The notes under the pieces are model-generated. The model was given only the letters and a program-made list of their open reading frames with translations. It was not told the origin of the DNA and ran no database searches. Positions 17,019 through 58,234 of a DNA stretch of 64,000 bases are shown in pieces (within the stretch, counting starts at the first letter, position 1; the number at the start of each line of letters is the position of its first letter). The translations under genes were made by a program, and so were the position numbers. Source of the stretch: a virus; IMG/VR virus record IMGVR_UViG_3300031616_000001, positions 32,001 to 96,000 of that record. The stretch is one strand, 5' to 3'.

Positions 17019-17234
17019 AAGCACTGAATTTGGGGGGTGTGCTGGGCACGCGCATTGCATCGGCCAGATCGCATCTGCGGTCAGCAGGCCGGCGGCCGAC
17101 CGGTTGCACGAGGGGAAACCCCCTTCGGAGAAGGTCGCCAGGCCGCGCCGCGCGCGCGTACGGTTTACCGATTCGCGGCTCCGCGCTGTTACAAAAAACT
17201 TTGCGTTGCTGAAGTCCATCGGCGGTGGCCGTCG

Positions 17235-41289: not shown

Positions 41290-41719
41290 CTGTCTGATCG
41301 CCGCCATATATGCGATCGAGAAACGCCTCGGCTTCTGCTGCATCCTGCGCCCTGCGGAGTCGCGCGCGCCGGCCGAGGAACGGCAGAATGCGATGCCACC
41401 AGCGGTGCTCGAGGCGGTCGATCATCTCGTCGAGCGCCGCCGCCATCGACGGCGCTTGCTCTACGAGGCGTGCCGCGAGCCTGCGCGCTGATTCGTCGGA
41501 TTGCGTAGCCGGTGGGTCAGGCAACTCCTCCATCACCCAGATCTGCGCGCCGTACTCGCTGCGGCGGCCGCTGTCGACGTAGCGGATCGGGAAGTAGCGG
41601 CCGGCGATCTCCATGGGCACGACGACGGCCTGCGCGCGCACGGTGTTCACGCGCATGCGGCCGGCGGCCGGACCACCCTCGAAGACGATCGTCGGGCTTG
41701 CAGCGGGGAGCCTGGCCAT
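41282..41719 (-). CDS. Hypothetical protein
   Basis: ORF in leftward operon. Confidence 0.55.
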   Translation of the reverse strand: MARLPAASPTIVFEGGPAAGRMRVNTVRAQAVVVPMEIAGRYFPIRYVDSGRRSEYGAQIWVMEELPDPPATQSDESARRLAARLVEQAPSMAAALDEMIDRLEHRWWHRILPFLGRRARLRRAQDAAEAEAFLDRIYGGDQTDE

Positions 41720-41721
41720 AG

Positions 41722-42090
41722 TCAGGAATGCGTAGGCAGGGGAGTCGACATCAGATCCGCTTCGACGAGCTCGAACAAGCCGGCCAGTTCGGCGATGCTC
41801 AGCGCATCGACCCGCGCTGCCAGCTCAGTCGAGTCGTCGAGGGCATCAACGAGCACGCGGCAGATCTGCACCAGGTCTGTCAGGCCAAGAGCACCGAGGC
41901 TGTAGGCCGTCCGCAGGCGTTGCCATTCGCCGTCGCTGAATTCAGCGCGCAGGTCGTGTTGATAGCTCTTCATCAGCTGCAGGTAGCGGTCGACGATCTG
42001 ATTGATGCGCCCGCTTGCGCCCTCGCCGCCGCGCATCGCGCTCATCGTGCGCTCGGTCAGGTAGAGCGAAACGGATTTGGACTTGGCCAT
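41722..42090 (-). CDS. Hypothetical, ribbon-helix-helix-like N-terminus
   Basis: KSVSLYL...SGRINQIVDRY; GAGGAG RBS. Confidence 0.6.
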   Translation of the reverse strand: MAKSKSVSLYLTERTMSAMRGGEGASGRINQIVDRYLQLMKSYQHDLRAEFSDGEWQRLRTAYSLGALGLTDLVQICRVLVDALDDSTELAARVDALSIAELAGLFELVEADLMSTPLPTHS

Positions 42091-42129
42091 GTTGTTCTCC
42101 TCGGGAATGCGTAGCAGGGGGGTAGCCTA

Positions 42130-42972
42130 TCAAGGATGAGGATCCGGAGGCGCGGGGCGTTCCATCAGATCGTCCGGATGCTTGCCGTAGAGCCTGGCGA
42201 TGGGCTCGCGCAGATCGCGCCGCAGTTCGTCGACGAGCCGCTGCAGGACCTTGACTCGTGCTGCGTCGGCGCTGATCGCACGGCCCTCCATCTCGGCGGC
42301 GGCCTCGTAGGCCTCGTCGTCGACATAGGGAAGCTCTCCATACCCGCTGAGGCTATAGCCGATGAGCTGCGCGAACTGCTGGCGATCGGCGTTGCTGAAC
42401 TCGAGGCAGGCGATCGCGTTGAGGTCCATACCGCGTGGCTTCGCCCAATCGAGCAGCATGCGCACGATAGCGTTGCCTTGAAAGCGTGTCTTGCCGTCGA
42501 CGTCGACGAGCGGCTGAATGGGTTGCGGCAATTGCATGTCGGCCTCCTGAGTTGCGGATTGCGTAGCCGGGGGTACCGCTTGAGATTGCGTAGCCGGGGG
42601 TGGCGCCTTCAGCGCGACCATGCCGTGGCCGGCAAGCGAACGCGCCGTCTGGCGGTCCAATGCCTCGCCGAAAGCGGTGCGCGGCGTCAGCACCTCCCAC
42701 ATGCCGAGCGCGCCGCCAAGGCCGATCAGCGTCAAAGCCGCGCCCTGATCGCCGAGCCACGCGCCGAGCTCGATGTAGGTGAGCTCGAGGCCGCAAAACA
42801 CGTCGAGAATCTCGTGGAACTCGCCTTCGTGCTTGTCCACGAGCGAGCGCAGCGCAGCGGCATCCGCGGTCGGCTTCGCCTTGACGCCGAAGAAGATCAC
42901 GTCGACGGCGCCGGCTTCGTTAGGCACACATTGCTCGGCATGCGCGGCGATGTACTCGGACAGCGTGCTCAT
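42130..42972 (-). CDS. Two-domain hypothetical protein with internal in-frame start at 42537
   Basis: ELGAWLGDQGAAL domain, motif-encoded linker, then QFAQLIGYSLSGY domain. Confidence 0.65.
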   Translation of the reverse strand: MSTLSEYIAAHAEQCVPNEAGAVDVIFFGVKAKPTADAAALRSLVDKHEGEFHEILDVFCGLELTYIELGAWLGDQGAALTLIGLGGALGMWEVLTPRTAFGEALDRQTARSLAGHGMVALKAPPPATQSQAVPPATQSATQEADMQLPQPIQPLVDVDGKTRFQGNAIVRMLLDWAKPRGMDLNAIACLEFSNADRQQFAQLIGYSLSGYGELPYVDDEAYEAAAEMEGRAISADAARVKVLQRLVDELRRDLREPIARLYGKHPDDLMERPAPPDPHP

Positions 42973-43181
42973 GATGTTCTCCCGGTGGCTTTGGCGATGG
43001 CGGCGTCGATGTAGTCGAGTGCAGCGTTGATCTGGCGAGCACGCTTGCGCTCTTCGGCGTCGCGGTACGTTCTGAGGTCGTCGGCAATCGTGGCCATTTC
43101 GTTCCTGACGAGTGACAGCCCGTCGCGCTCGGTCTTGTTCGGTTTGCGCAGTCGCGGCCCCGGCGTGTGCACCGCGCTCAT
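42969..43181 (-). CDS. Hypothetical protein (HTPG...AAIAKATG)
   Basis: Coupled ORF. Confidence 0.55.
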   Translation of the reverse strand: MSAVHTPGPRLRKPNKTERDGLSLVRNEMATIADDLRTYRDAEERKRARQINAALDYIDAAIAKATGRTS

Positions 43182-43294
43182 TGCTGACCCCACTTCGCAT
43201 AGACGAACAAGGCGGCGACGCCGGCGCCGATGGCAGTGAGAACGCCGACGCAGAACCCGAACCAGAACTGCGCTTCGAAGGTCAGCGCGCTCAT
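43178..43294 (-). CDS. Small membrane peptide
   Basis: Coupled at both ends; hydrophobic. Confidence 0.45.
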   Translation of the reverse strand: MSALTFEAQFWFGFCVGVLTAIGAGVAALFVYAKWGQQ

Positions 43295-43716
43295 GAGGCG
43301 GTCCCGGTGGCCTTTGCGATGACGGCCAGCGCTTGCTCTGCGGCGTGTGCATGCTGCATTGGCTGTTGGGCCTCGGCGCATGCGGTCAGCGCTTCCAGCA
43401 TCTCGGCGATCAGCTCGTCGCGGTCGTCGAATGGCGTGAGCTCATGTGTCGGAACGGTCTGCTTGTAGATTCTGATTTCACGCATCCCATCGCGCGCTGC
43501 AATGACGATCGGCAGGTCAAGCGCAATCGTTGCCATCAGCGCCCGGTCTTCGACACCGAGGCTGTACACCGTGCCGGTAACGCGTTTACCGTCATAGTCG
43601 CGATGACGAACGTGCTGACCAATGTGCAGATTCAATGCGACTCCGGCGTTCTGGGCTACGAGACAGAAACCCTCGCATTCGACGCACTGACGACCGGGCG
43701 TGTGCTGCGCGCTCAC
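43291..43716 (-). CDS. Hypothetical protein (QHTPG...IAKATG)
   Basis: GTG start overlapping upstream stop. Confidence 0.55.
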   Translation of the reverse strand: MSAQHTPGRQCVECEGFCLVAQNAGVALNLHIGQHVRHRDYDGKRVTGTVYSLGVEDRALMATIALDLPIVIAARDGMREIRIYKQTVPTHELTPFDDRDELIAEMLEALTACAEAQQPMQHAHAAEQALAVIAKATGTAS

Positions 43717-44192
43717 GGCGTTACCACCTGGGATTGCGTAGCGGGGGCTGCAGGTGCCGGCGAGACAGCGGCTTTCGTCACGTTGATGACGACGATGAGG
43801 CTGCGGCCATGCTTCATCTTGACCCGGTCTTCCTTGCTGCCGGCATACTCGCGTTCGATCTCGCGGAAGCCGAGTTCGACGAGCGCCGCGTGCAGTTTGT
43901 CGTCGCACGTGCAGATCGCCGGCATGATGCGCAGCGTCTTGCCGTGGTCCCACGTGCTCATGTCGCGTCTGGCCAGCCGCACACCGAGGTCGTGCAGCGG
44001 CCGCAGGAAGGGGTCGAGCAGCGCGAGCTTTGCGCGGAGCGACTTGATCTCGGCGAGGCGCCGGGCGTGCAGATAATCGGCGTGCGCGGCCGAAATCTCT
44101 TCGAGCGTGCGCGGTGCGCGGCCGTTGAACTTCAGGTGGTTGTCCCACTGGTCGAGCAGTTGGAACGGCGCGGCGGGTGTGGTGGTCTGCAT
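43713..44192 (-). CDS. Hypothetical protein
   Basis: AGGAG RBS. Confidence 0.6.
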   Translation of the reverse strand: MQTTTPAAPFQLLDQWDNHLKFNGRAPRTLEEISAAHADYLHARRLAEIKSLRAKLALLDPFLRPLHDLGVRLARRDMSTWDHGKTLRIMPAICTCDDKLHAALVELGFREIEREYAGSKEDRVKMKHGRSLIVVINVTKAAVSPAPAAPATQSQVVTP

Positions 44193-44261
44193 GGTCTGAT
44201 CTCCTGTTTTGGGATTGCGTAGGCAAGGGGGTGCGGGCTTGCGAATGCGTAGGCGGGGGGG

Positions 44262-46832
44262 TCAGGTCGAGGCGGCCTCGCTGCAGGTCTGCGGCGCCGA
44301 GTCCGCGGCCGCGAAGTACCGCGCGGCGCCGGCATCGATCACGGCGACCATCGCCGCGCGTTCGTCGCCGCGGACGGCGGCCAGGTCGCGCAACCGGCTC
44401 ACAGCGGCGCGATACGCGGCCGTCAGCGCGCCGCCGTCGGATTCCGTGGCCAGGGCACCGCCGCACGTCTCCAGGCGCTCAGCGGCCCGCATGATCTCCT
44501 CGCGGGTTACGGTTCCGTCCGCCCAGGCCTCGCACTTGCGCAACTGGTTGTGCGTGATCGCCGCCACTTGATCTGACGACAGCACCGGGCTGCGCGGCTG
44601 CATGCCGTCGAGCGCATCGGCCGGCATCGAGGTCTTGCCCTGGTCGTCGCGGTGCGCGAGGATCAATTCGCCGCCTTGGATCAGCAGCAGGCCGACGCCC
44701 GGGTGTGCCTCCATGTACGCATTCGCGGCGTCGACCTCGGCTTCCGGGAAGCGCGCGACAGCACGGAACCAGCGGCCGCACGTGGCGACGTAATCGGGAG
44801 CGGCGGCGACGCTGACCGATTCGCCGGGCGGGGGTGCGTCCTTCGCTGGCGCTTCGAGCACGACCAGCACCGTATGCACACCGGTGCCAGAGGTCTCGAA
44901 CGTGCCGGACGGCAGCGCCTCGATGCTGCTGCCGAGGCGCTCGACCAGCGCGCGAAAGTCTCGGGTCTTCCGATCGGATCTGAAGCTAACACCGGCCGAC
45001 ATGATCGCGACCAAGCGACCGCCCGGCGCCAGGAACTGCAACGCGTGGTTCACGTGGTCGACGTCTGCGCCCTTGGCGAAGGGCGGGTTCATCAGGATCG
45101 CGTGAAAGTGGCTGCCGAGGGTCGCGATCGAGCACGCCAGGAAGTCACCGACCGCGAGCCGATCGACGCGCGAGCGCACGCCATCCGCCAAGGCGTGATT
45201 GATCTCCACGGCCGTGATGTGCTTCGCGTGGCCCTCGGCGAGGATCGCGTCGACGAGTCGGCCAGTGCCTGCGCTCGGTTCGAGCACGTAGTCGCCCTGC
45301 GTGATGTTGGCAAGCTCCACCATGCGGACCGCCAGCTCGGGCGGCGTCGGGAATAACTGCGGCGCGCTGACCACCTTAACGCCGGCCTTCAAGCTGTCGC
45401 GCATGGCTTGGAACTGATCGCGCTGTGAGTCCGTAGCCAGGGGGGCGGATTGCGTAGGTACGTGGGGCAGGGCGGCCGGCTCGATCTGGCGCTCGAACTT
45501 CGCCGGCTCGGCGGGGGCCTTCGGCTCGCTGTTCCACGGCCCGCGCGCGCGCCCCTTCGGCAGTGCGCCCGGCGCCGCTGGCGTGGATTCCTTCGCATCG
45601 GTCAGGAACACCGGAACGCGCTTCCAGCCGCCCGCGCTGCTGCACGCGGTGCGGTGCCGATGCTCGACCGCTTCGGGCGTGGCTTTGATCTTGTCCACGA
45701 AATAGGAATCGCTGCACCGGGTCGCGCGCTTCCATTCCTCCGCGGTCATTTCCTTGCAGTCGTCTGTGCGATAGTTGCACAGCGGTGCCAGCTTGGACAC
45801 GGCCGCCACCTTGGCCACTTCTTCCGGCTCAGGCGCGCGGTAATCCTTGACCTCCTCGATGCCGCGCACGTTGACATAGCGCGCCGTGGTCGTGAGGCTC
45901 ACAACCTTGCCGCCGCTCTTGTTGATGCGCAGGACCACGCACCACTCGGCGCCGATCAGCACACGCCCGCCAATCTGGATGTCGAATTGCTCCGCCGCGA
46001 TCCCGCCGGAGTCCCCCAGCATCGCGCGCTCGTACTCCAGGCGGTTGCCGATGTGATCGAGCCAGCGGCGCGCGTGCGCGATCATGGCTTCGCACTGCAC
46101 CAGCGATTCACGCCAAGCGGTGTCACCGTGCATGCGGCCGGCGCTCAGTTCCGAATAGATGCCATACGAGCCGACCGAGATTCGACCGGCGAAAAACGTC
46201 GCCACTGCGGTCTGTTTGTCCCACTCGTAGCGCGGGATTTTCTGCCACGTGCGCGCCGCCGCCTCGTGATCATCAACGGTCTTCTGTTGCTTGCGCTGGT
46301 CTGACTCCAAGCCCTTGATGCGACGATGGCGCACGCCCGGGTCTTCCTTGTACTTGGCATGGCGCAGCGCACCGGCCGCGCGTGCCTTCCAGTAGGCCGA
46401 GGTCTCGAACGCCTTCACGGCCTTGCGCATGCCGTTCTCGATGCGCTCGGCATCCTTGCGCGCGTGCCGCTCGGAATGGTGGCCGACGAGGATCGGCTGG
46501 CCCAGCGGGATACCGTCCGTGATCTTGCGCACGTGCTCGGCCAAGTAGACCGCCTCGGCGCCGCGCTTGTCTTCATACTCCCCGAAGCGCTCCGCGCGTT
46601 CTTCCGCGCGGTCCATCAGCGAACGGTCGTCGTCCTCGATCTCGGCGGCCAGCTCGATGCAAAGATCGGCGCGGCCCGGCGTCCACATCGGCGCAATGAA
46701 TTGCTCTTGCTTCGGGGCCCAGGCAAAGCCTGCGGCCTTGACACGGGCGTAGGTGTCGGCGTCCAGGCGAGCCGATGCGGTCAACCGCAATTTGTTGTCG
46801 TCGGGCGAATACGTGGCGGTATAGGTGGTCAT
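44262..46832 (-). CDS. DUF3560 domain fused to adenine-type methyltransferase
   Basis: ATYSPDDNKLRL, GQPILVGHHSE; FPTP, VLEPSAGTG, MNPPF. Confidence 0.9.
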   Translation of the reverse strand: MTTYTATYSPDDNKLRLTASARLDADTYARVKAAGFAWAPKQEQFIAPMWTPGRADLCIELAAEIEDDDRSLMDRAEERAERFGEYEDKRGAEAVYLAEHVRKITDGIPLGQPILVGHHSERHARKDAERIENGMRKAVKAFETSAYWKARAAGALRHAKYKEDPGVRHRRIKGLESDQRKQQKTVDDHEAAARTWQKIPRYEWDKQTAVATFFAGRISVGSYGIYSELSAGRMHGDTAWRESLVQCEAMIAHARRWLDHIGNRLEYERAMLGDSGGIAAEQFDIQIGGRVLIGAEWCVVLRINKSGGKVVSLTTTARYVNVRGIEEVKDYRAPEPEEVAKVAAVSKLAPLCNYRTDDCKEMTAEEWKRATRCSDSYFVDKIKATPEAVEHRHRTACSSAGGWKRVPVFLTDAKESTPAAPGALPKGRARGPWNSEPKAPAEPAKFERQIEPAALPHVPTQSAPLATDSQRDQFQAMRDSLKAGVKVVSAPQLFPTPPELAVRMVELANITQGDYVLEPSAGTGRLVDAILAEGHAKHITAVEINHALADGVRSRVDRLAVGDFLACSIATLGSHFHAILMNPPFAKGADVDHVNHALQFLAPGGRLVAIMSAGVSFRSDRKTRDFRALVERLGSSIEALPSGTFETSGTGVHTVLVVLEAPAKDAPPPGESVSVAAAPDYVATCGRWFRAVARFPEAEVDAANAYMEAHPGVGLLLIQGGELILAHRDDQGKTSMPADALDGMQPRSPVLSSDQVAAITHNQLRKCEAWADGTVTREEIMRAAERLETCGGALATESDGGALTAAYRAAVSRLRDLAAVRGDERAAMVAVIDAGAARYFAAADSAPQTCSEAAST

Positions 46833-46923
46833 GGTGAGGCTCCTTGATGCTGCGCCCGTTGGTGGGCGTGATGGGTTTGGAGTGCGTAGGCAGGGGGTGT
46901 GCAGGAATGCGTAGCCAGGGGTT

Positions 46924-48222
46924 TCAGACCGCGCGGTTCTTGTTGCGCTCGTGGCTGGCCCATTCGAGCAACTTCGTGCCGAACTGCATGGCTTGGCCGG
47001 GTTGCGTCAGATCGAAGTCGATGTCGTTGTCGGCGTGGCCGATGGGCAGTTCGTCGTGCAGCTTGGCGCCGGTGTCCGCGATGACCTCTGCCACTTGCTG
47101 CTCAGAGTCCGCGCGCACCCAATACACCCGGTCGTCGGTGTCGTCGGTGCCGCCGTCGAATCCCGCGGCCGTAACTTCCCAGACGTGCGAGCGCGGCGCG
47201 TGCTTCGCGTCGAAGGCCTTCACCAGCCCCGGCAGTGCGGCGTGGTCGGTGCGCTCGATGTCTTCGACGTGGTTGCCGTCGGCATCGTGAATCGCAAACG
47301 TGCAGGGGATCGGCTCGGCGTCGGCCAGGGCGCGGCCGTCGATGCGCGCATCGCTCAGCGTCGTGCACTCCGCTACGGTTTGCTCGCCGTCGATCATCAC
47401 GTAGAACGGGCCGCGGGGGCGTGCGCCGGCCGCGAGCCGCGCCAGGGCATAGGCATGCACCGGCGAGCCGACGGCAGCCATGCGGGTGACGTAGGCGTGG
47501 GCGTCGTCGTCGCTGGCGAATCGGTTCTGTTCGTCGTCGCGCTGCAGGTCGCGGTCGTCGTTGAACAGCGCCCAGCCCTCGGCCTGACCCAGCGCGCCGA
47601 GTGCGGCGGCGAGTTCCTTCGCGCATTCCTCCCAGCGGTCCCAGCGCTCGCAGTAGTCGCGCAGCCATTCGCGATGGATGCTGTTCTGCAGCACGTCGGA
47701 AACGTGCTGGTCGTCTTCGAGTTCTGCCAGCAGCTCATCAGCGCTCTTGAAGGGCAGGCCGTGCGCCTCGCAATACGCTTCGAGTTCGTCGCAGAGCGCG
47801 GCCTCGCTCGGCAGCTCGGGCGCGACCTCTGAGCGGTCGCCGATCACCGCACGCACGGCGGCGAGCAGCACCGGCACGCCATCCTGTGTGTCGTCGTCTT
47901 CGAACCCGGCAATGAAGGCCTCGCAGCGCTGCAGCAGCGGGATTGCCAGCGCGACCGGCGCGGCCTCGTCGTTCTCGTCGCTGGTGTACGTGGGAATCGT
48001 CGCGTTCGCGAAGAACTGTTCGGCCGCGCTGAGCCATGCGCCTTGCTCGTCGGTGCAGGTCGGACCCGTCTCGATGTCGCCCACCTGCGGCGCACGCGTG
48101 AACCAGCGCGCGGACATGCCCAGGTCCGGCCGGTCGTCGGCTTCGCCTTCGTGCACGGCATAGCCGGCGGCCTGCAGCAGTTGAATCAGGCGGTCTGCGA
48201 TGTCGGATCGATTGGTGCTCAT
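46924..48222 (-). CDS. Acidic multi-module hypothetical protein
   Basis: 432 aa, D/E-rich; AAGGAG RBS. Confidence 0.7.
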   Translation of the reverse strand: MSTNRSDIADRLIQLLQAAGYAVHEGEADDRPDLGMSARWFTRAPQVGDIETGPTCTDEQGAWLSAAEQFFANATIPTYTSDENDEAAPVALAIPLLQRCEAFIAGFEDDDTQDGVPVLLAAVRAVIGDRSEVAPELPSEAALCDELEAYCEAHGLPFKSADELLAELEDDQHVSDVLQNSIHREWLRDYCERWDRWEECAKELAAALGALGQAEGWALFNDDRDLQRDDEQNRFASDDDAHAYVTRMAAVGSPVHAYALARLAAGARPRGPFYVMIDGEQTVAECTTLSDARIDGRALADAEPIPCTFAIHDADGNHVEDIERTDHAALPGLVKAFDAKHAPRSHVWEVTAAGFDGGTDDTDDRVYWVRADSEQQVAEVIADTGAKLHDELPIGHADNDIDFDLTQPGQAMQFGTKLLEWASHERNKNRAV

Positions 48223-48294
48223 GAGTGGTTCTCCTTGATGCTTCGCGCTCGTCGCGCGTGATGGGTTTGGAAACTGGAATGCGTAGTCGGAGGG

Positions 48295-48441
48295 CTACTG
48301 ACGGTCGATCCAGTCTTCGCGGCGTTCGTCGTGCGTCAGCGCTTCGGCGCGTTTGCGGTCGGCGCGAATCGATCGCGCAACCGCGATGCCGGCCCAGAGA
48401 ATGGCCGCAGCAGCGGCGCCGATCACGAGGTATTCAGTCAT
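48295..48441 (-). CDS. Small membrane protein
   Basis: MTEYLVIGAAAAAILWAGIAV. Confidence 0.45.
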   Translation of the reverse strand: MTEYLVIGAAAAAILWAGIAVARSIRADRKRAEALTHDERREDWIDRQ

Positions 48442-48899
48442 CAGTCTTCCTTGGGTTGTGCCGTGGTGGCGGCGTTGAGATTGCGTAGGCAGGGGTAGGG
48501 CAGCGCGGATTCTGGGGCAGCCGGCGTGTGCTTGGTGCGCGGCGCTGGCACGGCGCGATTGAGGAACGCGCGCGCCTCTCGGAACGCGCGACGATGCGCG
48601 CGCCCGCGTTTCGCGCATGCCTTGGCGCCCTCGTGCTCGCCATCCTTGCGATTGCGCTCGGCGGTGTACTCCTGTTCATCTGCGGCGCAGTCGGCAGCAT
48701 CGATCAACGCCGACAGAAGCGCGACCGGCACGATCACATTGACCGGCCCGCCGCTCACGTAGCGGATACCGGAGCGGATGCTTTCGTCGTCGTTGAACGT
48801 ATCGAGCAGATGCAGCGCGGCGCCTTCGCCGGTCTCGTCGGCTTCGGCCTGCGTCTTGGCCTTGATGGTCAGTTCGAGAATCGTGCGGAAGTTGGGCAT
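48441..48899 (-). CDS. Hypothetical protein
   Basis: AGGAGG RBS. Confidence 0.55.
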   Translation of the reverse strand: MPNFRTILELTIKAKTQAEADETGEGAALHLLDTFNDDESIRSGIRYVSGGPVNVIVPVALLSALIDAADCAADEQEYTAERNRKDGEHEGAKACAKRGRAHRRAFREARAFLNRAVPAPRTKHTPAAPESALPYPCLRNLNAATTAQPKED

Positions 48900-48951
48900 G
48901 GGTTCCTCCTGTGAATGCGTAGCGGGGGGCGCGGAATGCGTAGCCAGGGGC

Positions 48952-49407
48952 TCAGGCCTTGGCCCGTTGCGTGCGGCGATAGCGACGGAGTTCGCGCAGC
49001 GCATCGGCGACGTATGCGCGCGAGCGCTCCACGTTGATTGCAAGGCACCATTTCGGAAACTCGCGGCACTTGCGGTCGGCGTAAACCTTGATCGTCGCGT
49101 TCGGGAAGTCGTAGCTTTTGAGCATGGCCCTCTCCTCGGTTTCGTTGACAGCGGCCGGCGCGTCGAGCGTGCAGGCTTGAATCGCGGCAATCACTCGGGC
49201 GCGCCGATGGTGCGGCGGGTAGCGCGCCTCGATGCGCTCGCACCAGTCCAGCGGCGTGACGCGCTCGCCGGGTTCGATCAGGAACGCGAACACGTCACAG
49301 GCATGGCGGAACGTCTTCAGCACGTGCGGCGGAATGCTGGCCGCGGGTTGCATGGGAACCTGCAGGCCGCCGCGATGCGTACGCATGATCCAGACCGCCG
49401 TGCTCAC
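48952..49407 (-). CDS. Hypothetical protein
   Basis: Coupled GTG start. Confidence 0.5.
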   Translation of the reverse strand: MSTAVWIMRTHRGGLQVPMQPAASIPPHVLKTFRHACDVFAFLIEPGERVTPLDWCERIEARYPPHHRRARVIAAIQACTLDAPAAVNETEERAMLKSYDFPNATIKVYADRKCREFPKWCLAINVERSRAYVADALRELRRYRRTQRAKA

Positions 49408-51722
49408 CGCGCACCCCCGGCGCGGAGCACGTACACCGGCGCGAAGCGCGCGGGAATGCGTAGGCGGGGATCACCGGGCGGAATGCGTAGGCGGGGGGCA
49501 GCCGACACCGCGGCGCGTGCGCGCTCGCGCAGGGCTTCGCGGTCGAAGTCGGCCAGGGCATCGGGGCCCAGCTCGGAGACCTCGAGGCCGTCGAGATTCG
49601 GAAGCGCCTCGGGTTCCGGCGTCGCGGTTCCAATTTCCCGGGCAGGGGATACGGAAACGCGAAGCCACTCGGACCAGTTATCGGCGCCGAACACCTCTTT
49701 GGCTGCTACGTCGGCGGCAGGCTGCGAGGGCTCGGATTGCGTAGGCAGGGGGATGGCTTCCGCATTGGATTGCGTAGCCGGGGGGCGCGACTCGCGCGCA
49801 TGCTCCGCCAGGGCATCGGCCAGGGCTCGCGCTTCATCTGCGGCATCGGCGCGCAGGTCTGCGGCGCGGCCGTGCTGAGCGATGCGCTGCAGGTGCGCCA
49901 GGACGGCCGGAGCGGCGGACAGATTGCCGGCCCGCGCTTCCGCGATGGCTGACCCGCGGCCGGAGTCCGGAGCCCATACCATGGAAGCGCGCGCCAGCGT
50001 CGCCGCCGCGGATTTCATCTGCGCGACCGCGACGGTATGCGCGAACTCGGCGGGGGATACGTGGTGCACTGTCACTGCAGGTGCGGCCACCGGCCGGGAT
50101 TGCGTAGGCAGGGGGGTGAGAGTCTCGGCGGCCAGCTCGCGCAAGACTTCCGCGCGCCGATGGTTGCCGATCGAATCCGCGGCATTGGCGCGCGTCGCGA
50201 ACCGCTTCGCCGCGCGATCTGCCAGGATTGCCCGCGCGACGCTGGCGCGGAGTGCATTGGCCGCGTCGCTGCGGTACTCGGCGAAAGCGCGGAAGGTCTG
50301 CAGCGGGTCGGCCGCATCTGTAGGCGTCGCGGTTTCGAACCGTCCGAGTAGCGCGCGGGCCCGGGTGAACGTCTGGCAGTGCACGCGATAGACCGCGCCG
50401 GCCATGGCGGGCGCATTGCAGCGCGCGCGCGCCGGCCCGCAGTCCATGCGCGCGGATTCGCGCAGCGCGGCGCCGGGATGGCCGCGGAAGGCTTCCGGAA
50501 GCGGTTCCGCCCAGACGCGCGCCGCATAGTCTGAGAATTGAGCCGATACGGCGCGCATGCCGCGCGCGGCGGCCATGGCGCGCAGCTCGGCGAATCCGGC
50601 TTCACTGTCGGCGCCAGTCAAGCCCGGGCCGGCGCACTCGAAAAACCGGGATTCGATGCGCTGCGAATCGGTGCCGATCAGATGGAGTTCGAACCGATAC
50701 CGCGGCGCGTCGGCATTGGCGGCCGTGGGCGCGTCCGGCGCGGATTGCGCGGCCACGATATCGGCCGGCGCGCTGGCGTGCACTGGCGCCGCGGTTTCGT
50801 CGCTGGCGTCGGCATCGGCGGCCATGTAGTGAGCCAGCGCGGCGGATTGATCGAATGCGGCCAAACCGGCCACCGCGCGCGCCACGCGCTCGCGGAACGC
50901 GTCTTCGGCCATCTTCGATTCGATCCATGCCAGGGCCAAGGAATGTGACTTGAAACCGTCGGCCGGCGCGCCAGTCTTGACGGTATCGACGCCAAGGCCC
51001 GACGGCGTGTGCATCACGTGGAACTTCCCGCCGTCGATAGAGCGTGCCAGGGTGAACGCATGGCCGCCGATCTCGACTGATTCGGCGGCCATGTAGGGCC
51101 GAGGGCCGGCTCCGGACGAAACGCCAAAGTACAGCGCGCCGCGACTCGCGGCCAGCTGCAGCGCGCCGGCATAGTCGCGGGCTTCCCACATGGCACGCGC
51201 GGCCACGTGCGGCGCCGACGCGGCCGGCTTCGAAGGCTTCGCCGCGCGCCGCGCTTTGCCATCAAACGCGCCGCGGTTCGCGTGGACCTTGTCAGCCAGG
51301 ACGAGAAGCGCGCCGCGCAGATTCGCGACCGTCAGGGAACCGCGCGCGCCGTCCGGCGTGCCGTAGGCGAATGTCGCCCGCGCGTTATCGCGTGCGGCCA
51401 GGAACGGCCCGGGCTTCTCGGGATGCGTCAGCATGCGCGGCCATTTGCTGGCCGGCCCTTCGGTTTCGATCTCGATCGATGCCGCGCCGAGCACTGGCAT
51501 GTAGAAGACCGCGCCGGTTTCATGTTCGGCAGGAACAGTGAACGGATACAGCCCGGGCGCGTAGCGGTCCGGGAATTCGCATTCCGGAGCGAACTCGGGC
51601 GCCAGCTCTGCAGCGGCGCGAATCGCGGCGCACAGTGCAGCGGCGCCGCTGTAGCGCGTCGCCGCGTATGCCAGGGTGGCGGAGGTGTTCGCGCTGCGCG
51701 CGGGGGTGAAAGTGGTTGTCAT
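49404..51722 (-). CDS. Large Ala-rich hypothetical protein
   Basis: 772 aa; AAGGA RBS. Confidence 0.65.
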   Translation of the reverse strand: MTTTFTPARSANTSATLAYAATRYSGAAALCAAIRAAAELAPEFAPECEFPDRYAPGLYPFTVPAEHETGAVFYMPVLGAASIEIETEGPASKWPRMLTHPEKPGPFLAARDNARATFAYGTPDGARGSLTVANLRGALLVLADKVHANRGAFDGKARRAAKPSKPAASAPHVAARAMWEARDYAGALQLAASRGALYFGVSSGAGPRPYMAAESVEIGGHAFTLARSIDGGKFHVMHTPSGLGVDTVKTGAPADGFKSHSLALAWIESKMAEDAFRERVARAVAGLAAFDQSAALAHYMAADADASDETAAPVHASAPADIVAAQSAPDAPTAANADAPRYRFELHLIGTDSQRIESRFFECAGPGLTGADSEAGFAELRAMAAARGMRAVSAQFSDYAARVWAEPLPEAFRGHPGAALRESARMDCGPARARCNAPAMAGAVYRVHCQTFTRARALLGRFETATPTDAADPLQTFRAFAEYRSDAANALRASVARAILADRAAKRFATRANAADSIGNHRRAEVLRELAAETLTPLPTQSRPVAAPAVTVHHVSPAEFAHTVAVAQMKSAAATLARASMVWAPDSGRGSAIAEARAGNLSAAPAVLAHLQRIAQHGRAADLRADAADEARALADALAEHARESRPPATQSNAEAIPLPTQSEPSQPAADVAAKEVFGADNWSEWLRVSVSPAREIGTATPEPEALPNLDGLEVSELGPDALADFDREALRERARAAVSAAPRLRIPPGDPRLRIPARFAPVYVLRAGGAR

Positions 51723-52189: not shown

Positions 52190-53050
52190 TCAGATTTCAA
52201 GCGCGGCCTGCGGCGCGTAGACGGGAACGGGGAACCATGCCACGGCCGGCGGCGTCTCGAAGTCAATCGAGGGAACCGGGCCGACTTCCACGGCCGGCGC
52301 ATCATCCGTGGGCGCGAGATCGATGGCCGGCGCGAAGATGTCAACCGGCGCGGCATCCGCGGCCGGCACGCTGTCCACGTCGAGCACGGCAAACCGCGCG
52401 GCTTTCAAGGCTTCGAGCTGCAGCCCCTGCACGACACTTGCCGCGGTTTCCCCGGAGCGCTCGACGCGGCGAACAATGTCGCGCGCCACGCTACGCACTT
52501 CGGCAATCGCTGCACTCACGGCCGCCGCGGTGTCGGTCGACAGCATGCCCGACAGTTCGCGGGCTTTGTTCGCGGCTTCGCGAATCGCGGCCGGGTCTGC
52601 GTTCCGCACGCCGCGCTCCATGGCTTCGATAAGGTCGCGCACCTCGGACCCGATGGCCGCCGCGGCTTCCGTATCACTGTCGGCGATGCGGCCGGCAATC
52701 ACGAACACGTCGAGACGCGAGAAGCGCGCGCCGCGGTTGAATTCGTCAGCCACGCGGCGCGCTTCCGCGATGCCGTCAGAAAGTGCGGATTCATTGGACG
52801 ACGGGCAGAGAAGCCCGAAAGTCGAGGCACAGCAGGTCCGCAGGATCGCGGTACGCGCGAGGCCGCGCGCTCTCACTGCGGAGTCGTGCTCCGCGGCGTC
52901 GGCGATCTCGCGGCGCGTGCGCCACTCCGCCACGCGTGCCTCGCCCTGCAGGTGATCGGATTCGATGGTCTCGGTTTGATACGAGACGCCGCCGCGGATA
53001 GTGGTTTTGAGGGAGACGAGAAGCCCGGGGCGGATGATTGAAGTTTGCAT
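52190..53050 (-). CDS. Helical hypothetical protein of the AAA-ATPase module
   Basis: 286 aa directly after ATPase. Confidence 0.65.
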   Translation of the reverse strand: MQTSIIRPGLLVSLKTTIRGGVSYQTETIESDHLQGEARVAEWRTRREIADAAEHDSAVRARGLARTAILRTCCASTFGLLCPSSNESALSDGIAEARRVADEFNRGARFSRLDVFVIAGRIADSDTEAAAAIGSEVRDLIEAMERGVRNADPAAIREAANKARELSGMLSTDTAAAVSAAIAEVRSVARDIVRRVERSGETAASVVQGLQLEALKAARFAVLDVDSVPAADAAPVDIFAPAIDLAPTDDAPAVEVGPVPSIDFETPPAVAWFPVPVYAPQAALEI

Positions 53051-53081: not shown

Positions 53082-54647
53082 TCAAAGGTCCAGCGTGCGG
53101 CGACCATCGGCGCCCGGCACGACTTCCGGCGCGCTTGCCATCCTGGCCCGGCCGTTTGCCCATTGGCGCAGCGCTGCGATACGCTCCGCCGCGGTTCGCA
53201 CTATCGGCACGGTCGCGCCGGCCGCGCTCAACAGGTCAGCGGTTTGCAGCGGCCGCGCGCCGTCAGCGAATGCCGTAAACATGGCGTCAGGCACGAGCGC
53301 GGCCAGCTCGGCGCCAGTGAATTCCGCGGTCGCAGCTGCCACGGCCGCCGCGTCGATGGCATCGGCGTCGCGGCCGTGTTCGCGGAGCGCGGTCTGCACG
53401 ATGGCCGCGCGTTCCGTCGGCGTCGGCACGTCGACGAAAAACACTTCGTCAAACCGACCTTTGCGCATGAGCTCCGGCGGAAGCTTCGAAACGTCATTCG
53501 CAGTCGCGACGACGAACACCGACCCGGCGCGATCCTGCATCCATTGCAGAACCGCGCCCAGCGCGTCCGCACTCACGCCGCCGTCCGCCGCGCCCTGCGT
53601 GGCGCCCCCCATGGCTTTCTCGATCTCGTCAAGCCAGAGGACGCACGGCGCGACCGTCTCGGCGACTTTCAGGGCTTTGCGGATGTTGCCTTCGGACTCG
53701 CCGACCCACTTGGAGCGGAGCGCGCCCATGTCGAGGCGCAGCAGCGGCATACTCCAAGCCGCTGCGATTGCCTTTGCACTGAGCGACTTTCCGCAGCCCG
53801 GAACACCGACGAGCAAAACCCCCTTGGGAGCGCTCAGGCCATAGGCGCGCGCGGCCGGCGTGAACGCGGCGCGGCGCTGCGTCAGCCAGGATTTGAGGTT
53901 TTCCAGTCCGCCGACCCCGTCGAGGCCAGATGCCAGGGGATCGAACCATTCAAGCACGCGTTCACGGGCAATCACGCGCCGTTTCTCTTGCGCTACCGTG
54001 GCCGGGTCAATCCGGCGCGTGGCGATGATGGAGCGCGCAAACGTGCTTTGCGCCTCTTCGGCCGACAGTCCGACGGCCGCATCAATTGCCGCGTCTCGCG
54101 TGCCGTCCGGCGCGGCCGTGGCGCGCATCTCGTCGGGAAGCGCTGCAATTGCCGCGTCAAGGATTTGCCCGACTTCGTCGCGGTCTGGCAAGGGGACATC
54201 AATCACGATTGCATGCCCCTGCAGTTCCGGCGGAACCTCTGCCGAAGGCGTCACGACGACGACGGCGCGCGCGGAGTCGCGAGCGGCAAGCGGAAGCGAG
54301 CGGCAAAGCGAGCGGAGCGCACGGGTTACCGTGGGATCGCGAAGCCACGCCGGCAGATCGCGGAGCACGTAGACGGAACGCGAGCGCGAATCGCGCACGG
54401 CGGCCAGGGCTTGCGCCGGGTCGGTCGCGCGTGAGTCAATGTCGCCGCCCCCGACAATCTGCGTGATCCCGTTCGCGCAGTCCCACGCAATCGGCGCATA
54501 TCCGGCCGATGCGGCGGCGTCGATCACGAGACGTTCGGCGCGTGCCTCTTCGCGCGTCACGAGCCAGATAAGCGGGTTGCGTGCGCGCAGTAGCGCGGCG
54601 ATGTCGGCTGCGCAGCGCGCGCCGGCGGTCTGGGTCTGGGTTGTCAT
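53082..54647 (-). CDS. AAA+ ATPase (Ycf46-like, degenerate N-terminal plus active C-terminal domain)
   Basis: Walker A GVPGCGKS, Walker B VLWLDEIEK, SRH ATAN...LPPELMRKGRFD. Confidence 0.9.
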   Translation of the reverse strand: MTTQTQTAGARCAADIAALLRARNPLIWLVTREEARAERLVIDAAASAGYAPIAWDCANGITQIVGGGDIDSRATDPAQALAAVRDSRSRSVYVLRDLPAWLRDPTVTRALRSLCRSLPLAARDSARAVVVVTPSAEVPPELQGHAIVIDVPLPDRDEVGQILDAAIAALPDEMRATAAPDGTRDAAIDAAVGLSAEEAQSTFARSIIATRRIDPATVAQEKRRVIARERVLEWFDPLASGLDGVGGLENLKSWLTQRRAAFTPAARAYGLSAPKGVLLVGVPGCGKSLSAKAIAAAWSMPLLRLDMGALRSKWVGESEGNIRKALKVAETVAPCVLWLDEIEKAMGGATQGAADGGVSADALGAVLQWMQDRAGSVFVVATANDVSKLPPELMRKGRFDEVFFVDVPTPTERAAIVQTALREHGRDADAIDAAAVAAATAEFTGAELAALVPDAMFTAFADGARPLQTADLLSAAGATVPIVRTAAERIAALRQWANGRARMASAPEVVPGADGRRTLDL

Positions 54648-54911: not shown

Positions 54912-55005
54912 TTTTAGAACTCCTGCGGGCTTTGCAGTGCATGCCGCTTTGGATCACCCGGAACCGCCGGGCCGCTGCACTAGTTGTCGGTTAGCGCATG
55001 AATGA

Positions 55006-55044
55006 ACTATAGCAGCGCAAAGGCGAAACGCAAGCAATGCTAAA
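55006..55044 (-). promoter_or_regulatory. Leftward sigma70-like promoter with operator, near copy of 14854-14892
   Basis: 35/39 identical; TTGCGT-16nt-TATAGT; AGCAATGCT. Confidence 0.75.
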
Positions 55045-55653: not shown

Positions 55654-55998
55654 ATGGTTTGGAATCGAGGCACCGCCGAATCGCGCGGCTATGGACCGGC
55701 ATGGCGCAAGTTGCGCGTGAGGATCCTGAAGCGGGACGGCTTCGTTTGCCAGTGCTCAGATTGCAAATCGGCGTTTCTGGTGACCGAGGCAACCGAGGTT
55801 GATCACGTCCTGAGCAAAGCCAAATGGCTGAAGAGATTCGGCAATCTGGTCGGCGTTGACGACCCAACCAACCTCCAGGCCATCAATCGCGACTGCCACA
55901 AGCGCAAGACCGCGATCGAGATGGGCCTGCGACTCAAAGGTGGATGCGACGTGACCGGCTGGCCACAAGGCATCGACCACCCGTGGAATGTGAAGTGA
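55654..55998 (+). CDS. Terminase-associated HNH endonuclease
   Basis: RGYG..WRKLR..IL.RD...CQC, ATEVDH, NLQ.I...CH..KT. Confidence 0.9.
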   Translation: MVWNRGTAESRGYGPAWRKLRVRILKRDGFVCQCSDCKSAFLVTEATEVDHVLSKAKWLKRFGNLVGVDDPTNLQAINRDCHKRKTAIEMGLRLKGGCDVTGWPQGIDHPWNVK

Positions 55999-56004: not shown

Positions 56005-56490
56005 ATGGCGAATCCTCGAAAGCCCACTGACCTGAAGTTGGTCGCGGGCACGACGCGGAAGGATCGATCCAATCCCACCGAGCCGAAACCAGACAAGGTA
56101 GCGCCGGTATGCCCGGCGCATATGAGCGACGAGTGCAAGGTGTACTGGGGTCGCGTCTGCGTCGAGTTGGAAATGATGGGCGTGCTCACGCGAGCCGACG
56201 GTATCGCGCTCGAGCAACTGGTCTACCTGTACCAGGAGAGCGTCACCCTCAAGGGCATCCTGGCCAAGGAAGGTCGCACGTACCAGGTCAAGGCGACGAA
56301 CGGCGAAGTCGTGTGGAAGAAGCACCCGGCGGCCGACATGCTCAAGGACATCCTCGTGGAGTTGCGTCACAGCCGCTCCGAGTTCGGCTTGAGCCCCGCA
56401 TCCCGCACCAAGGTGCACACGGTCCCGACCGGTGGCAACAAGAACCCCGCGGAAGCCCCGAAGCAGCCCGCCTCGGCCTACCTTACCTGA
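56005..56490 (+). CDS. terS: Terminase small subunit (P27 family)
   Basis: KPT.LK...GT, KHPA, EFGLSPASR. Confidence 0.9.
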   Translation: MANPRKPTDLKLVAGTTRKDRSNPTEPKPDKVAPVCPAHMSDECKVYWGRVCVELEMMGVLTRADGIALEQLVYLYQESVTLKGILAKEGRTYQVKATNGEVVWKKHPAADMLKDILVELRHSRSEFGLSPASRTKVHTVPTGGNKNPAEAPKQPASAYLT

Positions 56491-58234
56491 CCCGGTCACG
56501 GCGTACGCGCTCTCCGTCGTCAACGGCGAGACGCTCGCCGGGCCGAATGTCAGAGGAGCCTGCCGGCGCCATCTCGCGGATCTGAAGGAGGGCAAGGCGC
56601 GCGGGCTCCGGTTCGACCTGGTTTTGGTCAACCGCGCGATCGGCTTCTTCCGCGATGTCTTGCGCCTGAACGGCGGCGAACACGAGGGCCGGCCGTTCCA
56701 CCTCGAACCGTGGCAAGCCTTCATCGTCGGCAGCCTCTTTGGCTGGCTTGGATCCGACGGCTTCCGCAGATTCCGCACCGCCTACATCGAGATCGGCAAG
56801 GGCAACGGCAAGTCGCCGCTGTGCGCCGGCATCGGCCTGTACTGCCTGTGCGCGGACAACGAGCCGCGAGCCGAGGTGTACGCGGCGGCGACGAAGAAGG
56901 ACCAGGCAATGATCCTGTTCCGTGACGCCGTCGCGATGGTGAACCAGTCGCCCGAGCTTCACGCGAAGATCGCGCAGACCGGCGGCCAGAACCCATGGAA
57001 TCTGAGCTACGGCGGCAGCTTCTTTCGTGCCATCAGCTCCGACGACGGTCAGTCCGGGCCGCGGCCGCATTGCTCGCTGATCGACGAGGTGCACGAGCAC
57101 ACCAACTCCGGCGTCGTTGACATGCTCGGCTTGGGCCAGAAGGGGCGCCGGCAGCCACTGACGGTAGAGATCACGAACAGCGGGTTCGACCGCACCTCGA
57201 TCTGCTTCCAGCATCACGAGTACAGCGGCCGCGTCACCTCCGGCATGGAGGAAAACGACGAGTGGTTCGCGTACGTCTGCGGGCTGGACGAGGGCGACGA
57301 TCCGATGAAGGACGAGTCGTGCTGGCCGAAGGCCAACCCGAACCTCGGCGTCTCGGTCACGCTCAAGTACCTGCGCAAGGAGGTGCGCGAAGCCATCGGC
57401 ATGCCGGCCAAGGCATCGATCGTCAAGCGCCTCAACTTCTGCGTTTGGGTCGACGCCGAGAATCCGTGGATCGAGGGTCCGCTGTGGATGGCGTGCGAGG
57501 ACAAGTTCGACGCGATCTCAGAGTTGCAGCAATGCAGCGAGGTCGTCGGTGCTCTCGACCTTTCGGGCACGCGAGATCTGACGGCATTGGCCTTGGCAGG
57601 TCTCGTCGAGACCGTCATCACCTGCGTGGTCGAGTTCTGGACGCCGAAGGACACGCTGATCGAGCGCGCGCGCACCGATCGCGTTCCCTACGACTCGTGG
57701 GTCGAGGACGGCTACATGACGGCGACGCCAGGTCGCAACGTCGACTATGGTTTCGTCGCCCAGCGCCTCAGCGAGCTCCAGGTCATCTTGCCGTCGTTCC
57801 GCAGGCTGTGCTTCGACCCGTACCGGATCAAGTACCTCGAGAAGGAGCTCGATGAGCTCGGCATCGAGATTGAGCTGATCCCGCACGGGCAGGGCTACTA
57901 CAAGGCGCACGACAAGCCGTCGGAAGATCAGAAGAAGGCCAAGGCCGGCGACAAGCCGCGGCCCAACATGTGGATGCCGCGGTCGATCGAGCTGCTCGAG
58001 AAGGCCATCCCGGAGAAGCGCTTCCGCGTTCAGCGCAACCCGTGCCTGACCTGGAATAGCGCGTCGGCCGTGCTGGAGGCCGACTCGAAAAACAATCGCA
58101 TCTTCTCGAAGCGCAAGTCGCGAGGCCGCATCGACGGACTCGTGGCAGCCGCGATGGCCACGGGACTTCTTCACGAAGACGCGCCGCCACCGAAGAAGCG
58201 CGAGTTCCAGCTGTTCACGCTGGGCGGGCGATAG
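56432..58234 (+). CDS. terL: Terminase large subunit
   Basis: LEPWQ.F, KGNGKS, IDEVHEH, KANPNLG, DLS, RIDGLVA. Confidence 0.95.
   Translation: MATRTPRKPRSSPPRPTLPDPVTAYALSVVNGETLAGPNVRGACRRHLADLKEGKARGLRFDLVLVNRAIGFFRDVLRLNGGEHEGRPFHLEPWQAFIVGSLFGWLGSDGFRRFRTAYIEIGKGNGKSPLCAGIGLYCLCADNEPRAEVYAAATKKDQAMILFRDAVAMVNQSPELHAKIAQTGGQNPWNLSYGGSFFRAISSDDGQSGPRPHCSLIDEVHEHTNSGVVDMLGLGQKGRRQPLTVEITNSGFDRTSICFQHHEYSGRVTSGMEENDEWFAYVCGLDEGDDPMKDESCWPKANPNLGVSVTLKYLRKEVREAIGMPAKASIVKRLNFCVWVDAENPWIEGPLWMACEDKFDAISELQQCSEVVGALDLSGTRDLTALALAGLVETVITCVVEFWTPKDTLIERARTDRVPYDSWVEDGYMTATPGRNVDYGFVAQRLSELQVILPSFRRLCFDPYRIKYLEKELDELGIEIELIPHGQGYYKAHDKPSEDQKKAKAGDKPRPNMWMPRSIELLEKAIPEKRFRVQRNPCLTWNSASAVLEADSKNNRIFSKRKSRGRIDGLVAAAMATGLLHEDAPPPKKREFQLFTLGGR

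Follow-up and report, generated by a model that had tools for sequence, protein, structure and literature searches.

A short co-oriented nucleotide motif at gene and domain seams in the accessory operon of an uncultured temperate phage

Phage accessory regions, anti-defence genes included, turn over fast, and to our knowledge few mechanisms of inserting new accessory genes have been worked out in detail. In this work, we describe an 18-nt motif that recurs along one operon of the IMG/VR virus record IMGVR_UViG_3300031616_000001. The record comprises 118,179 bases, and the stretch that was analyzed (64,000 nt, hereafter the window) corresponds to its bases 32001-96000. The closest described systems come from several phage groups. 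In T4-type phages, PeSL cassettes combine a promoter with a terminator hairpin; recombination between copies has been proposed and mini-circles have been shown (PMC2839356). Stoperators of Cluster A mycobacteriophages are 13-bp sites, found genome-wide and at promoters, that are bound by a monomeric helix-turn-helix (HTH) repressor with a stoperator domain, as for L5 gp71 and the TipsytheTRex repressor (PMC9283540). The start-associated sequences of Cluster K mycobacteriophages (SAS/ESAS) contain the core of the Shine-Dalgarno (SD) sequence and lie 3-7 bp from the start codon (PMC3203893), and the polyvalent proteins of phages and conjugative elements, which belong to conflict-related regions, string many unrelated modules into one polypeptide (PMC5512222).

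The motif fits the kind "conserved boundary element of phage accessory regions." What is unusual is that the same nucleotides double as in-frame linkers: one short word marks seams at two levels, between genes and between the domains of a long modular protein. That it is a nucleotide-level junction signal at module seams appears well supported. As with PeSLs, the elements are short, conserved, in one orientation and ahead of small accessory genes in a hyperplastic early region, and related phages differ at them by insertions, deletions and replacements, here from few comparisons and with a weak result in a wider protein test. However, the strong sigma-70 promoter and terminator hairpin of PeSLs have no counterpart in the motif, which is only 18 nt long, occurs in tandem and also serves as an in-frame linker between protein domains. 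With stoperators, it shares its asymmetry, a number of copies of about 20 or more inside transcription units, an orientation tied to transcription and its occurrence in temperate phages. In contrast to them, it is 18 bp long, limited to one operon and absent at the promoter region (54.9-55.2 kb), a third of its copies lie inside genes, and its sole candidate binder is a ribbon-helix-helix (RHH) protein rather than an HTH repressor. Like SAS, which are kept across subclusters, it is asymmetric, keeps one orientation and stands just upstream of the starts of unrelated, exclusively non-structural genes, with no known function. In its case, however, the SD is a separate element that comes after it, the start codon is 9-71 nt away, and copies are also found deep in frames and past the last gene. 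As in polyvalent proteins, unrelated modules are strung together, and the methyltransferase module encoded here matches PHROG profiles of 1259-3925 positions; a nucleotide motif at module seams, in contrast, is absent from the passages of PMC5512222, in which "linker" and "shuffling" have 0 occurrences. Among the literature matches listed for motif 11-mers and related terms, none describes the motif and none concerns phage repeats.

An 18-nt motif confined to one operon

In gene sense, the motif reads CCCC-Y-N-N-CTACGCA-W-TCC. It is asymmetric, non-palindromic and bipartite, with sharp edges, conservation ending at -8 and +10 in an alignment of 80 distinct copies from eight loci (whose core positions 1-4 were fixed beforehand by the selection filter). 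The pattern GGAWTGCGTAGSCRGGGG, at up to two mismatches, has 19 matches in the window, all on the + strand and spanning 41498-50114, against a shuffle expectation of 0.08 on average and 2 at most (100 shuffles). In the full record, the + strand holds 8, 16 and 19 copies at 0, 1 and 2 mismatches, and the - strand holds none; all 19 are confined to one 8.6-kb stretch with a GC content of 0.64-0.70. The 7-mer TGCGTAG occurs 22 times on the + strand of the record, 20 of them inside this stretch, and its complement once. Two additional, degenerate copies at 45426-45443 and 45447-45464 bring the total to 21, while a further degenerate match at 47501 was discarded as a false positive. Copies are frequently paired: the window has seven pairs, with start-to-start distances of 33, 27, 21, 25, 21, 30 and 27 nt, and the distance varies from 15 to 33 nt across loci. 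These results bear out a preliminary description of this DNA, made from its letters, which had reported about 20 copies in a single orientation within 8.6 kb, often paired 21-33 nt apart and not noticed elsewhere. The opposite pattern that it had named, a uniform spread over both strands genome-wide, is not what the whole record displays. The peptides it had listed were confirmed as well, PLPTQS, PPATQS and PRLRIP lying in a 772-aa frame and PLPTHS ending a 122-aa protein.

Every gene in this stretch lies on the - strand, opposite to the strand matched by GGAWTGCGTAGSCRGGGG. The copies are given below on the gene strand, together with the three proteins needed to place them. Window copies were classified from the translation of the 772-aa gene, because an automatic frame classification misassigns four copies in that gene.

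49404-51722 (-): 772-aa modular protein with a conserved N-domain, motif-linked modules and a conserved C-terminal peptide
50097-50114 (-): in-frame motif copy coding for PLPTQS within the 772-aa gene, ahead of module F
49767-49784 (-): in-frame motif copy coding for PPATQS within the 772-aa gene, first of the 33-nt pair
49734-49751 (-): in-frame motif copy coding for PLPTQS within the 772-aa gene, second of the 33-nt pair
49480-49497 (-): motif copy in another frame (PRLRIP), in the conserved C-terminal region of the 772-aa family, first of a 27-nt pair
49453-49470 (-): motif copy (PRLRIP), the GTG of the following gene being 46 nt downstream
48933-48950 (-): intergenic motif copy, 1 nt past the TGA of a 151-aa gene, first of a 21-nt pair
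48912-48929 (-): intergenic motif copy abutting AGGAGG, which is followed by the ATG at 48902
48478-48495 (-): motif copy at the 3' end of a 153-aa gene, the next ATG being 35 nt downstream
48276-48293 (-): intergenic motif copy past a TAG, followed by a conserved leader of ~50 nt with a small hairpin, an SD and the ATG at 48222
46904-46921 (-): intergenic motif copy past the TGA of a 432-aa gene, first of the 25-nt pair
46879-46896 (-): intergenic motif copy ahead of the same conserved leader, which runs up to the ATG at 46832; start of homology with the related locus L005
44262-46832 (-): 856-aa DUF3560 and N6-adenine methyltransferase-like protein
45426-45464 (-): two degenerate copies 21 nt apart, in frame in the DUF3560-methyltransferase linker, absent in the L005 orthologue
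44242-44259 (-): intergenic motif copy past the TGA of the 856-aa gene, first of the 30-nt pair
44212-44229 (-): intergenic motif copy, the ATG at 44192 being 19 nt downstream; start of homology with L005
43731-43748 (-): motif copy at the 3' end of a 159-aa gene (APATQS), the next GTG being 14 nt downstream
42556-42600 (-): motif pair 27 nt apart, followed by AGGAGG and ATG and read through, a formerly intergenic seam within a 280-aa frame
42104-42121 (-): intergenic motif copy, the 122-aa RHH gene starting (ATG) 13 nt downstream
41722-42090 (-): 122-aa protein whose N-terminal RHH pattern precedes a helical C-terminal domain; candidate motif binder
41725-41742 (-): motif copy coding for PLPTHS, the last six residues of the 122-aa RHH protein, with the TGA immediately after
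41498-41515 (-): last motif copy, in frame (PPATQS) in a 145-aa frame

Eight of the 21 copies are intergenic, between a stop codon and the next SD and often 0-3 nt past the stop, and another 4-5 fall within the final codons of a gene, no more than 75 nt ahead of the next start. At 42556-42600, two are followed by an SD and an ATG across which the reading frame stays open, and six are deep inside frames. The start codon follows at 9-71 nt, and the SD, often 2-7 nt or ~40 nt past the motif, is separate from it, the motif containing no GGAG. Gene junctions that overlap as ATGA are without the motif. A typical seam runs from a stop codon through one or two motif copies to a ribosome-binding site and a start codon. 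Where the stop is missing, the motif nucleotides are read as a harmless proline-rich linker, so that a module can be either a gene of its own or a domain within a single long protein. The frame at 42130-42972 reads through a complete seam (motif pair, SD and ATG), which shows that seams can turn into linkers.

Two other kinds of conserved sequence were seen at seams. Behind some copies, there is a second conserved leader, composed of ccaaacccatcacg, a small GC hairpin, agcatcaaggag, 7-8 nt and an ATG. It is present at 46833-46878 and 48223-48275 in the window (- strand), at ~12860-12908, 14140-14195 and 10745-10800 in L005, and in another relative, L157, and precedes unrelated genes in these three phages. 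The other seam type is formed by unrelated small genes ending in (A/V)IAKATG(G/T/R), which overlap (ATGA) a next gene starting with MSAQHTPGP. A 22-nt word of this seam, TGAGCGCGSWGCACACVCCGGG, has four matches at up to three mismatches, versus 0 expected, in two separate regions of the window (43159-43180, 43694-43715, 13657-13678 and 13974-13995, all on the - strand), and the seam is also found in L005 at 10100-10400 and ~8100.

Constraint on the nucleotides of the motif

As for the level at which the motif is constrained, we sought the peptide P-x-[PAT]-T-[QH]-S, blind to nucleotides, in long frames with a high GC content at third codon positions (GC3) from seven loci, which gave 21 instances. 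Codon usage in these peptides is nearly invariant. The codon CCC is used in 20 of 21 (background 24%), xCT in 21 of 21 (background 7-9%), ACG in 21 of 21 (background 46%) and TCC in 19 of 21 (background 19%), while Gln is always CAA (16/16; background 39%) and His always CAT (5/5; background 36%). About half of the copies, across five loci, are non-coding and as well kept as the coding ones; for example, in L005 the automatic frame classification places 10 of 16 copies outside coding sequence. Moreover, adjacent in-frame copies 23 nt apart use different reading frames, and the core is unbroken at the 3' end of the RHH gene although the RHH proteins are only 38-42% identical between phages. Frozen synonymous sites, non-coding copies and frame switching together place the constraint on nucleotides, as the preliminary description had supposed when it placed selection at the level of the nucleic acid. 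This constraint stems either from selection or from continual copying among the motif copies.

These data also bear on whether in-frame copies matter as protein, P-x-P-T-Q-S being a linear motif (a cleavage site or C-terminal tag) and intergenic copies being relics of split genes. One frame does dominate, 8 of the 10 copies in L157 reading P-x-P-T-Q-S, and several small proteins share the same C-terminal tail. In addition, phage polyvalent proteins are thought to be cut into units (PMC5512222). We nevertheless judge a protein-level role highly improbable, because it accounts neither for synonymous sites frozen on rare codons nor for the equally good preservation of the half of the copies that are non-coding, nor for neighbors 23 nt apart in different frames. 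Gln and His alternate while the nucleotide stays A or T, and among the operon proteins, neither Pfam nor PHROGs revealed a peptidase.

Module differences between related phages

The same arrays, always in gene sense, are present in at least five related uncultured phages. All carriers of arrays are uncultured fragments and are mutually related. L005 (also G001) has 15 copies, 15/15 on one strand, is collinear with the window and encodes a DUF3560 gene that is 77% identical. In G002, there are five copies at up to two mismatches, 5/5 on one strand, or nine by the core; its operon is much shorter than that of the window, and four tandem copies lie past the last operon gene. L157 has 10 copies, nine of them within a homologue of the 772-aa gene, and L200 has 12; arrays also occur in G009/L255, L140/L141 and L137. 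A second motif class, CCCC-N4-5-GT(A/G)AWTCC, stands just upstream of the first in some relatives. In contrast, the 53 relatives identified through the operon's ATPase have no such array, no close relative was found by megablast in plasmid or phage collections, and a scan of species genomes for the 18-mer returned 49 loci, approximately the chance level, without a dense array. Scans for tandem pairs in metagenome and viral contigs gave at least 116 and at least 24 loci, mostly unrelated micro- or minisatellites with a chance core.

At the level of protein domains, the 772-aa family illustrates how the motif separates modules. Its 13 members (543-1306 aa), found only in array-bearing loci among the loci examined, have a middle part whose modules are arranged differently from protein to protein, with motif-coded linkers between them. 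Their conserved C-terminal peptide contains the motif read as LRIP. Module A is preceded by a motif linker 22-23 aa upstream and followed by one 52-56 aa downstream in 3/3 proteins, with different neighbors each time, and module F has motif linkers on both sides in 2/2 proteins. In more distant members (P0034, P0036, P0039, P0040 and P0041), the seams repeat other short peptides (PPGAESG, PPTRE, PVPGKS and PTAHS), which suggest lineage variants of the nucleotide motif that would keep the 5' CCCC and the 3' WTCC.

Differences in gene content lie at the motif as well. Between the window and L005, there are three blocks of homology, two of which (2083 and 469 columns) begin 0-7 nt from the motif on both sides. 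The adjacent pair at 44259/44229 of the window corresponds in L005 to copies with four genes between them, and L005 also carries two extra small genes upstream of the DUF3560 gene that are absent in the window.

Our preferred reading, which we hold tentatively, is that the motif is a portable junction for swapping co-oriented modules by homologous recombination. The copies would act as short portable patches of homology, and recombination between them, within a genome or between co-infecting relatives, would delete, insert or swap whole modules. Since the copies share one orientation, exchanged modules would stay co-directional and, at in-frame copies, in frame. A RecT-type recombinase is encoded in the window:

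11133-12410: RecT

Frequent exchange together with gene conversion would hold the copies uniform, and recombination at the motif would both yield the observed module differences and explain why the motif persists. PeSL cassettes offer a precedent for such a logic (PMC2839356). Of the range of processes evoked in the preliminary description, whose interpretation thus holds in part, recombination between gene modules is the one that fits best, considering the position at seams and the differences in content between relatives, whereas nothing in these data points to priming, antitermination, or the entry or protection of DNA.

Several points weigh against this reading. An identity of 18 bases is short for homologous recombination. 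There are only nine nucleotide homology blocks, and several of them end far from the motif. Protein homology ends within 12 aa of a linker in 25.7% of 148 cases versus 17.7% expected, with 24 of 2000 shuffles as high, a weak excess in a test that rested on long, low-identity alignments. In the assembled contigs of one DNA run, a single contig spans the stretch with no joint at the motif, and no recombinant, mini-circle or deletion joint at the motif was seen there. Recombination alone also leaves unexplained the gene-less tandem arrays (4 in G002 and 2 in L005), the tight co-occurrence with the RHH family and the retention of one sequence across phages whose proteins are 40-60% identical; such retention calls for either frequent exchange or a binder. 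If the motif does move modules, it would provide a simple testable rule for the rebuilding of phage arsenals, and a handle for finding cargo in metagenomes by reading between copies.

Repeated elements of other kinds were noted in the same searches. L100, a distant relative with an AAA ATPase 45% identical and a GC content of 0.45, has, in the corresponding neighborhood, 12 near-identical promoter-plus-terminator cassettes at 2598-17864 (+), most of which consist of a terminator-like hairpin, TTGACA-N17-TGGTATAAT, a conserved leader, an SD and a gene, and which look like PeSLs. L088 has, at 6911-11612 (+), 6-7 copies of ACTAAGGACGGCG-N4-CGCCGTCTCATAGTGTT, a hairpin with a conserved tail, which are found in this other relative between genes upstream of the ATPase gene and just past it. 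In another phage lineage, comprising the viral contigs L247/L258 (GC 0.50) and G006 at 11413-12672, 4-5 co-oriented copies of ATCCACTAAC-CTACGCAATCC within 1.3 kb have the same core as the motif with a different left half, and two of them stand directly ahead of an SD and an ATG. Full-motif tandem arrays of three and four copies, with a 29-30-nt period and identical spacers, occur in L049 (a Solirubrobacterales metagenome-assembled genome [MAG]; G007 C5 515460-515528) and at 372-471 in L137, and are probably slippage products. In L044 (an Acetatifactor MAG, low-GC Clostridia), the exact 18-mer is present twice at 5559-5685, 109 nt apart, with a common left flank of 30 nt.

A putative ribbon-helix-helix protein, the transcript and the virion end

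The record, from a root metagenome and with an uncultured host, is that of a temperate tailed phage, HK97-like and probably of cos type. Genes bearing the motif make up the distal, variable two thirds of an early accessory operon of ~15 kb that begins in an AT-rich stretch near 55.0 kb, gene calls being based on open frames and GC3. Its proximal genes, without the motif, encode a membrane protein of 86 aa, an AAA+ ATPase and a protein of 286 aa, the last two being common to many uncultured phages (53 loci for the ATPase and 31 for the 286-aa gene). The distal part encodes the 772-aa protein, small genes without an assigned function, the DUF3560-methyltransferase fusion and the 122-aa protein, and, judging from the DUF3560 domain, the methylase and the AcrIE10-like protein, may represent accessory cargo of an anti-defence type. 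The features of the proximal part and of the adjoining block are as follows:

52190-53050 (-): 286-aa gene, in the motif-free proximal part of the operon, beside the ATPase
53082-54647 (-): AAA+ ATPase, in the motif-free proximal part of the operon
54990-55040 (-): probable sigma-70-type operon promoter, TTGCGT-N16-TATAGT read by eye, unlisted in a stricter scan, free of the motif
55654-55998: HNH endonuclease
56005-56490: small terminase (terS)
56432-58234: large terminase (terL)

A possible but less probable reading than recombination, with which it is not exclusive since both can hold, is that the motif is the docking site of the 122-aa RHH protein, an AcrIE10-like repressor of Aca type, on ~20 co-oriented sites within the transcription unit. 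Bound protein would block or attenuate the elongating polymerase over the cargo in an orientation-dependent, stoperator-like manner, the proximal ATPase genes staying on. The distribution of the protein is consistent with this. Its family (28 members, unnamed, no Pfam hit) is present in 5/5 array elements with the distal end covered (G000, G001, G002, L200 and G009), in 0/53 ATPase loci without arrays and in 0/4 single-copy contigs. In the window, L005, G002 and L200, the gene has motif copies on both sides, and among 27 aligned members, 11 have a motif-coded tail, x-T-[HQ]-S, at the C terminus. However, the co-occurrence is confounded, because the 772-aa family is distributed in the same way and every carrier is related to the others. 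The motif itself, bipartite and sharp-edged, resembles protein sites, and arrays past the last gene in G002 and L005 suit a bound protein. Stoperators, too, lack symmetry, lie within operons and keep an orientation fixed by transcription (PMC9283540).

Several structural predictions bear on the fold. The RHH pattern was assigned by eye and is distantly AcrIE10-like. A homodimer model of the 122-aa protein scored 0.86 versus 0.00 for the best control, a mark reached by 20/30 proteins solved as pairs and 1/23 solved as single chains, with a contact agreement of at least 94%, a partner pLDDT of at least 88 and a predicted interface that includes residues 4-18 and 29-39. This model indicates a likeness to dimeric folds, not binding in the cell. 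Profile searches against the PDB gave 8ji9_D (E 0.052) and AcrIE10 chains (E 0.11); a Foldseek search with the monomer had 9m7t_A on top (E 0.22), with nothing significant; VIA-align ranked 8ji9_D second (Z 5.7, rmsd 3.7, 94 residues aligned); and the atlas neighbors were "Arc-like" (0.90) and CcdA (0.86). There are thus several weak matches to folds of AcrIE10 or RHH type, and each similarity to AcrIE10 alone is below significance.

AcrIE10 is an RHH repressor of its own anti-CRISPR, hence anti-defence, operon, which as a dimer of dimers binds an inverted repeat of 20 bp over the promoter; known Aca sites are inverted repeats with a fixed 2-bp spacer (PMC13530269). The 122-aa protein matches it in size and layout, the RHH having a bundle of short helices behind it, shares an R-[LIM]-N-x-I-x-D-R-Y stretch and a predicted dimerization via the N-terminal strand and helix 2, and is likewise encoded within an accessory operon of a mobile element. 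In contrast, the similarity is weak (E 0.05-0.2, Z 5.7) and does not imply anti-CRISPR activity. Unlike Aca operators, the motif is asymmetric, without an internal repeat and with a pair spacing of 15-33 nt, and it is absent from the promoter regions of the window and G002, whose alignment shows scattered identity only. Furthermore, the predicted beta-strand RPKSVYLT is nearly constant though the tails imply different motif classes, so that strand and motif do not co-vary. Were the motif nevertheless an RHH docking site, it would represent a stoperator-like silencing network outside actinophages, with a different repressor fold.

An extended scheme would unite the motif, the 772-aa protein and the RHH protein in one phage "module platform" that captures and reorders anti-defence modules, both genes and in-frame domains. 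The motif would be recognized by a recombination or docking activity, for which the 772-aa N-domain is a candidate, with a logic like that of integrons, an entirely different site and enzyme, and RHH as the switch. We consider this scheme improbable as a whole. Unlike integron attC sites, the motif has no self-complementarity or hairpin fold. No recombinase was found among the operon proteins by Pfam or PHROGs, the sole integrase seen is ~55 kb from the array, and the fold of the 772-aa N-domain was not recognized (no Foldseek match at E <=0.001, best VIA-align Z 4.5, mean pLDDT 67.8).

Alternatively, the motif could act in the mRNA as a single-stranded C-rich element, that is, as a site for an RNA-binding protein of host or phage or a signal for processing, stability or translation. 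The strict gene-sense orientation (19/19 in the window, 15/15 in G001, 5/5 in G002) would suit such a role, being explained by one-way transcription with no extra assumption, as would the frequent position 2-7 or ~40 nt ahead of an SD and the predicted lack of structure in motif RNA, for which z-scores versus shuffles range from -1.79 to +1.37, the two negatives being stretches with an extra leader hairpin. The SAS of Cluster K mycobacteriophages, of unknown mechanism, offer a precedent (PMC3203893). Still, many copies are deep in long frames (9/10 in L157) or past the last gene, the SD is outside the motif at a start distance of 9-71 nt, and neither a candidate RNA-binding protein nor a complementary RNA was found, with 0 reverse copies at <=2 mismatches in the record. 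We therefore regard a role in the mRNA as unlikely.

The scans made for transcription signals and RNA families gave values close to expectation. Across 17.5 kb, there were two promoter-like sites versus 1.7 expected, neither at the motif, and 12 terminator-like sites versus 11.5 expected, and Rfam returned no family at threshold. Together with folding, these scans rule out the motif as a sigma-70 promoter, terminator, RNA hairpin or known RNA family. A promoter for a phage RNA polymerase was also rejected, since PHROGs revealed no such enzyme in the 10 large frames that were scanned, which leaves room for a phage sigma factor. The motif fits none of the sigma-54, sigma-32 and ops-like consensus sequences known to us. 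A mimic of CRISPR repeats was also discarded, no scan having returned an array with the motif at CRISPR-like spacing; similarities to CRISPR repeats presumably touch only variable positions of the motif.

The HNH/terS/terL block, typical of cos packaging, lies ~5 kb from the first motif copy. Because it is beside the operon, the operon probably begins close to one virion end. The preliminary description had placed the motif near the probable genome end, which does not apply to the record (73.5-82.1 kb of 118 kb) but is plausible for the virion. Such a location, with all copies on one strand, would fit a polar DNA transaction at the virion end, such as staged entry with an injection stop, exonuclease protection, priming or origin iterons. 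We consider this very unlikely, since the copies extend over 8.6 kb at variable spacing, rather than in a compact array by an AT-rich stretch, G002 has arrays in a much shorter operon, and the species-genome scan gave chance singles only (49 loci, no dense array). Origin iterons, in particular, contrast with the spread, the pair spacing of 21-33 nt and the GC content of 0.64-0.70 observed here, and among the operon proteins, Pfam and PHROGs revealed neither a replication initiator nor a primase.

A few minor features of the record deserve mention. At 32826-32900 (+) of the window, ARAGORN detects a tRNA-like gene with an undetermined two-base anticodon. A protease-capsid fusion and a portal are also encoded in the record, with a tape measure, tail proteins and an integrase elsewhere in it. 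There are in fact two portal-like genes, at 60897-62627 (+) in the window and at 104050-106164 (+) in the numbering of the full record (G000). Genes here follow the uncommon order of terminase, protease-capsid fusion and portal. The record may therefore be a composite or carry two head modules.

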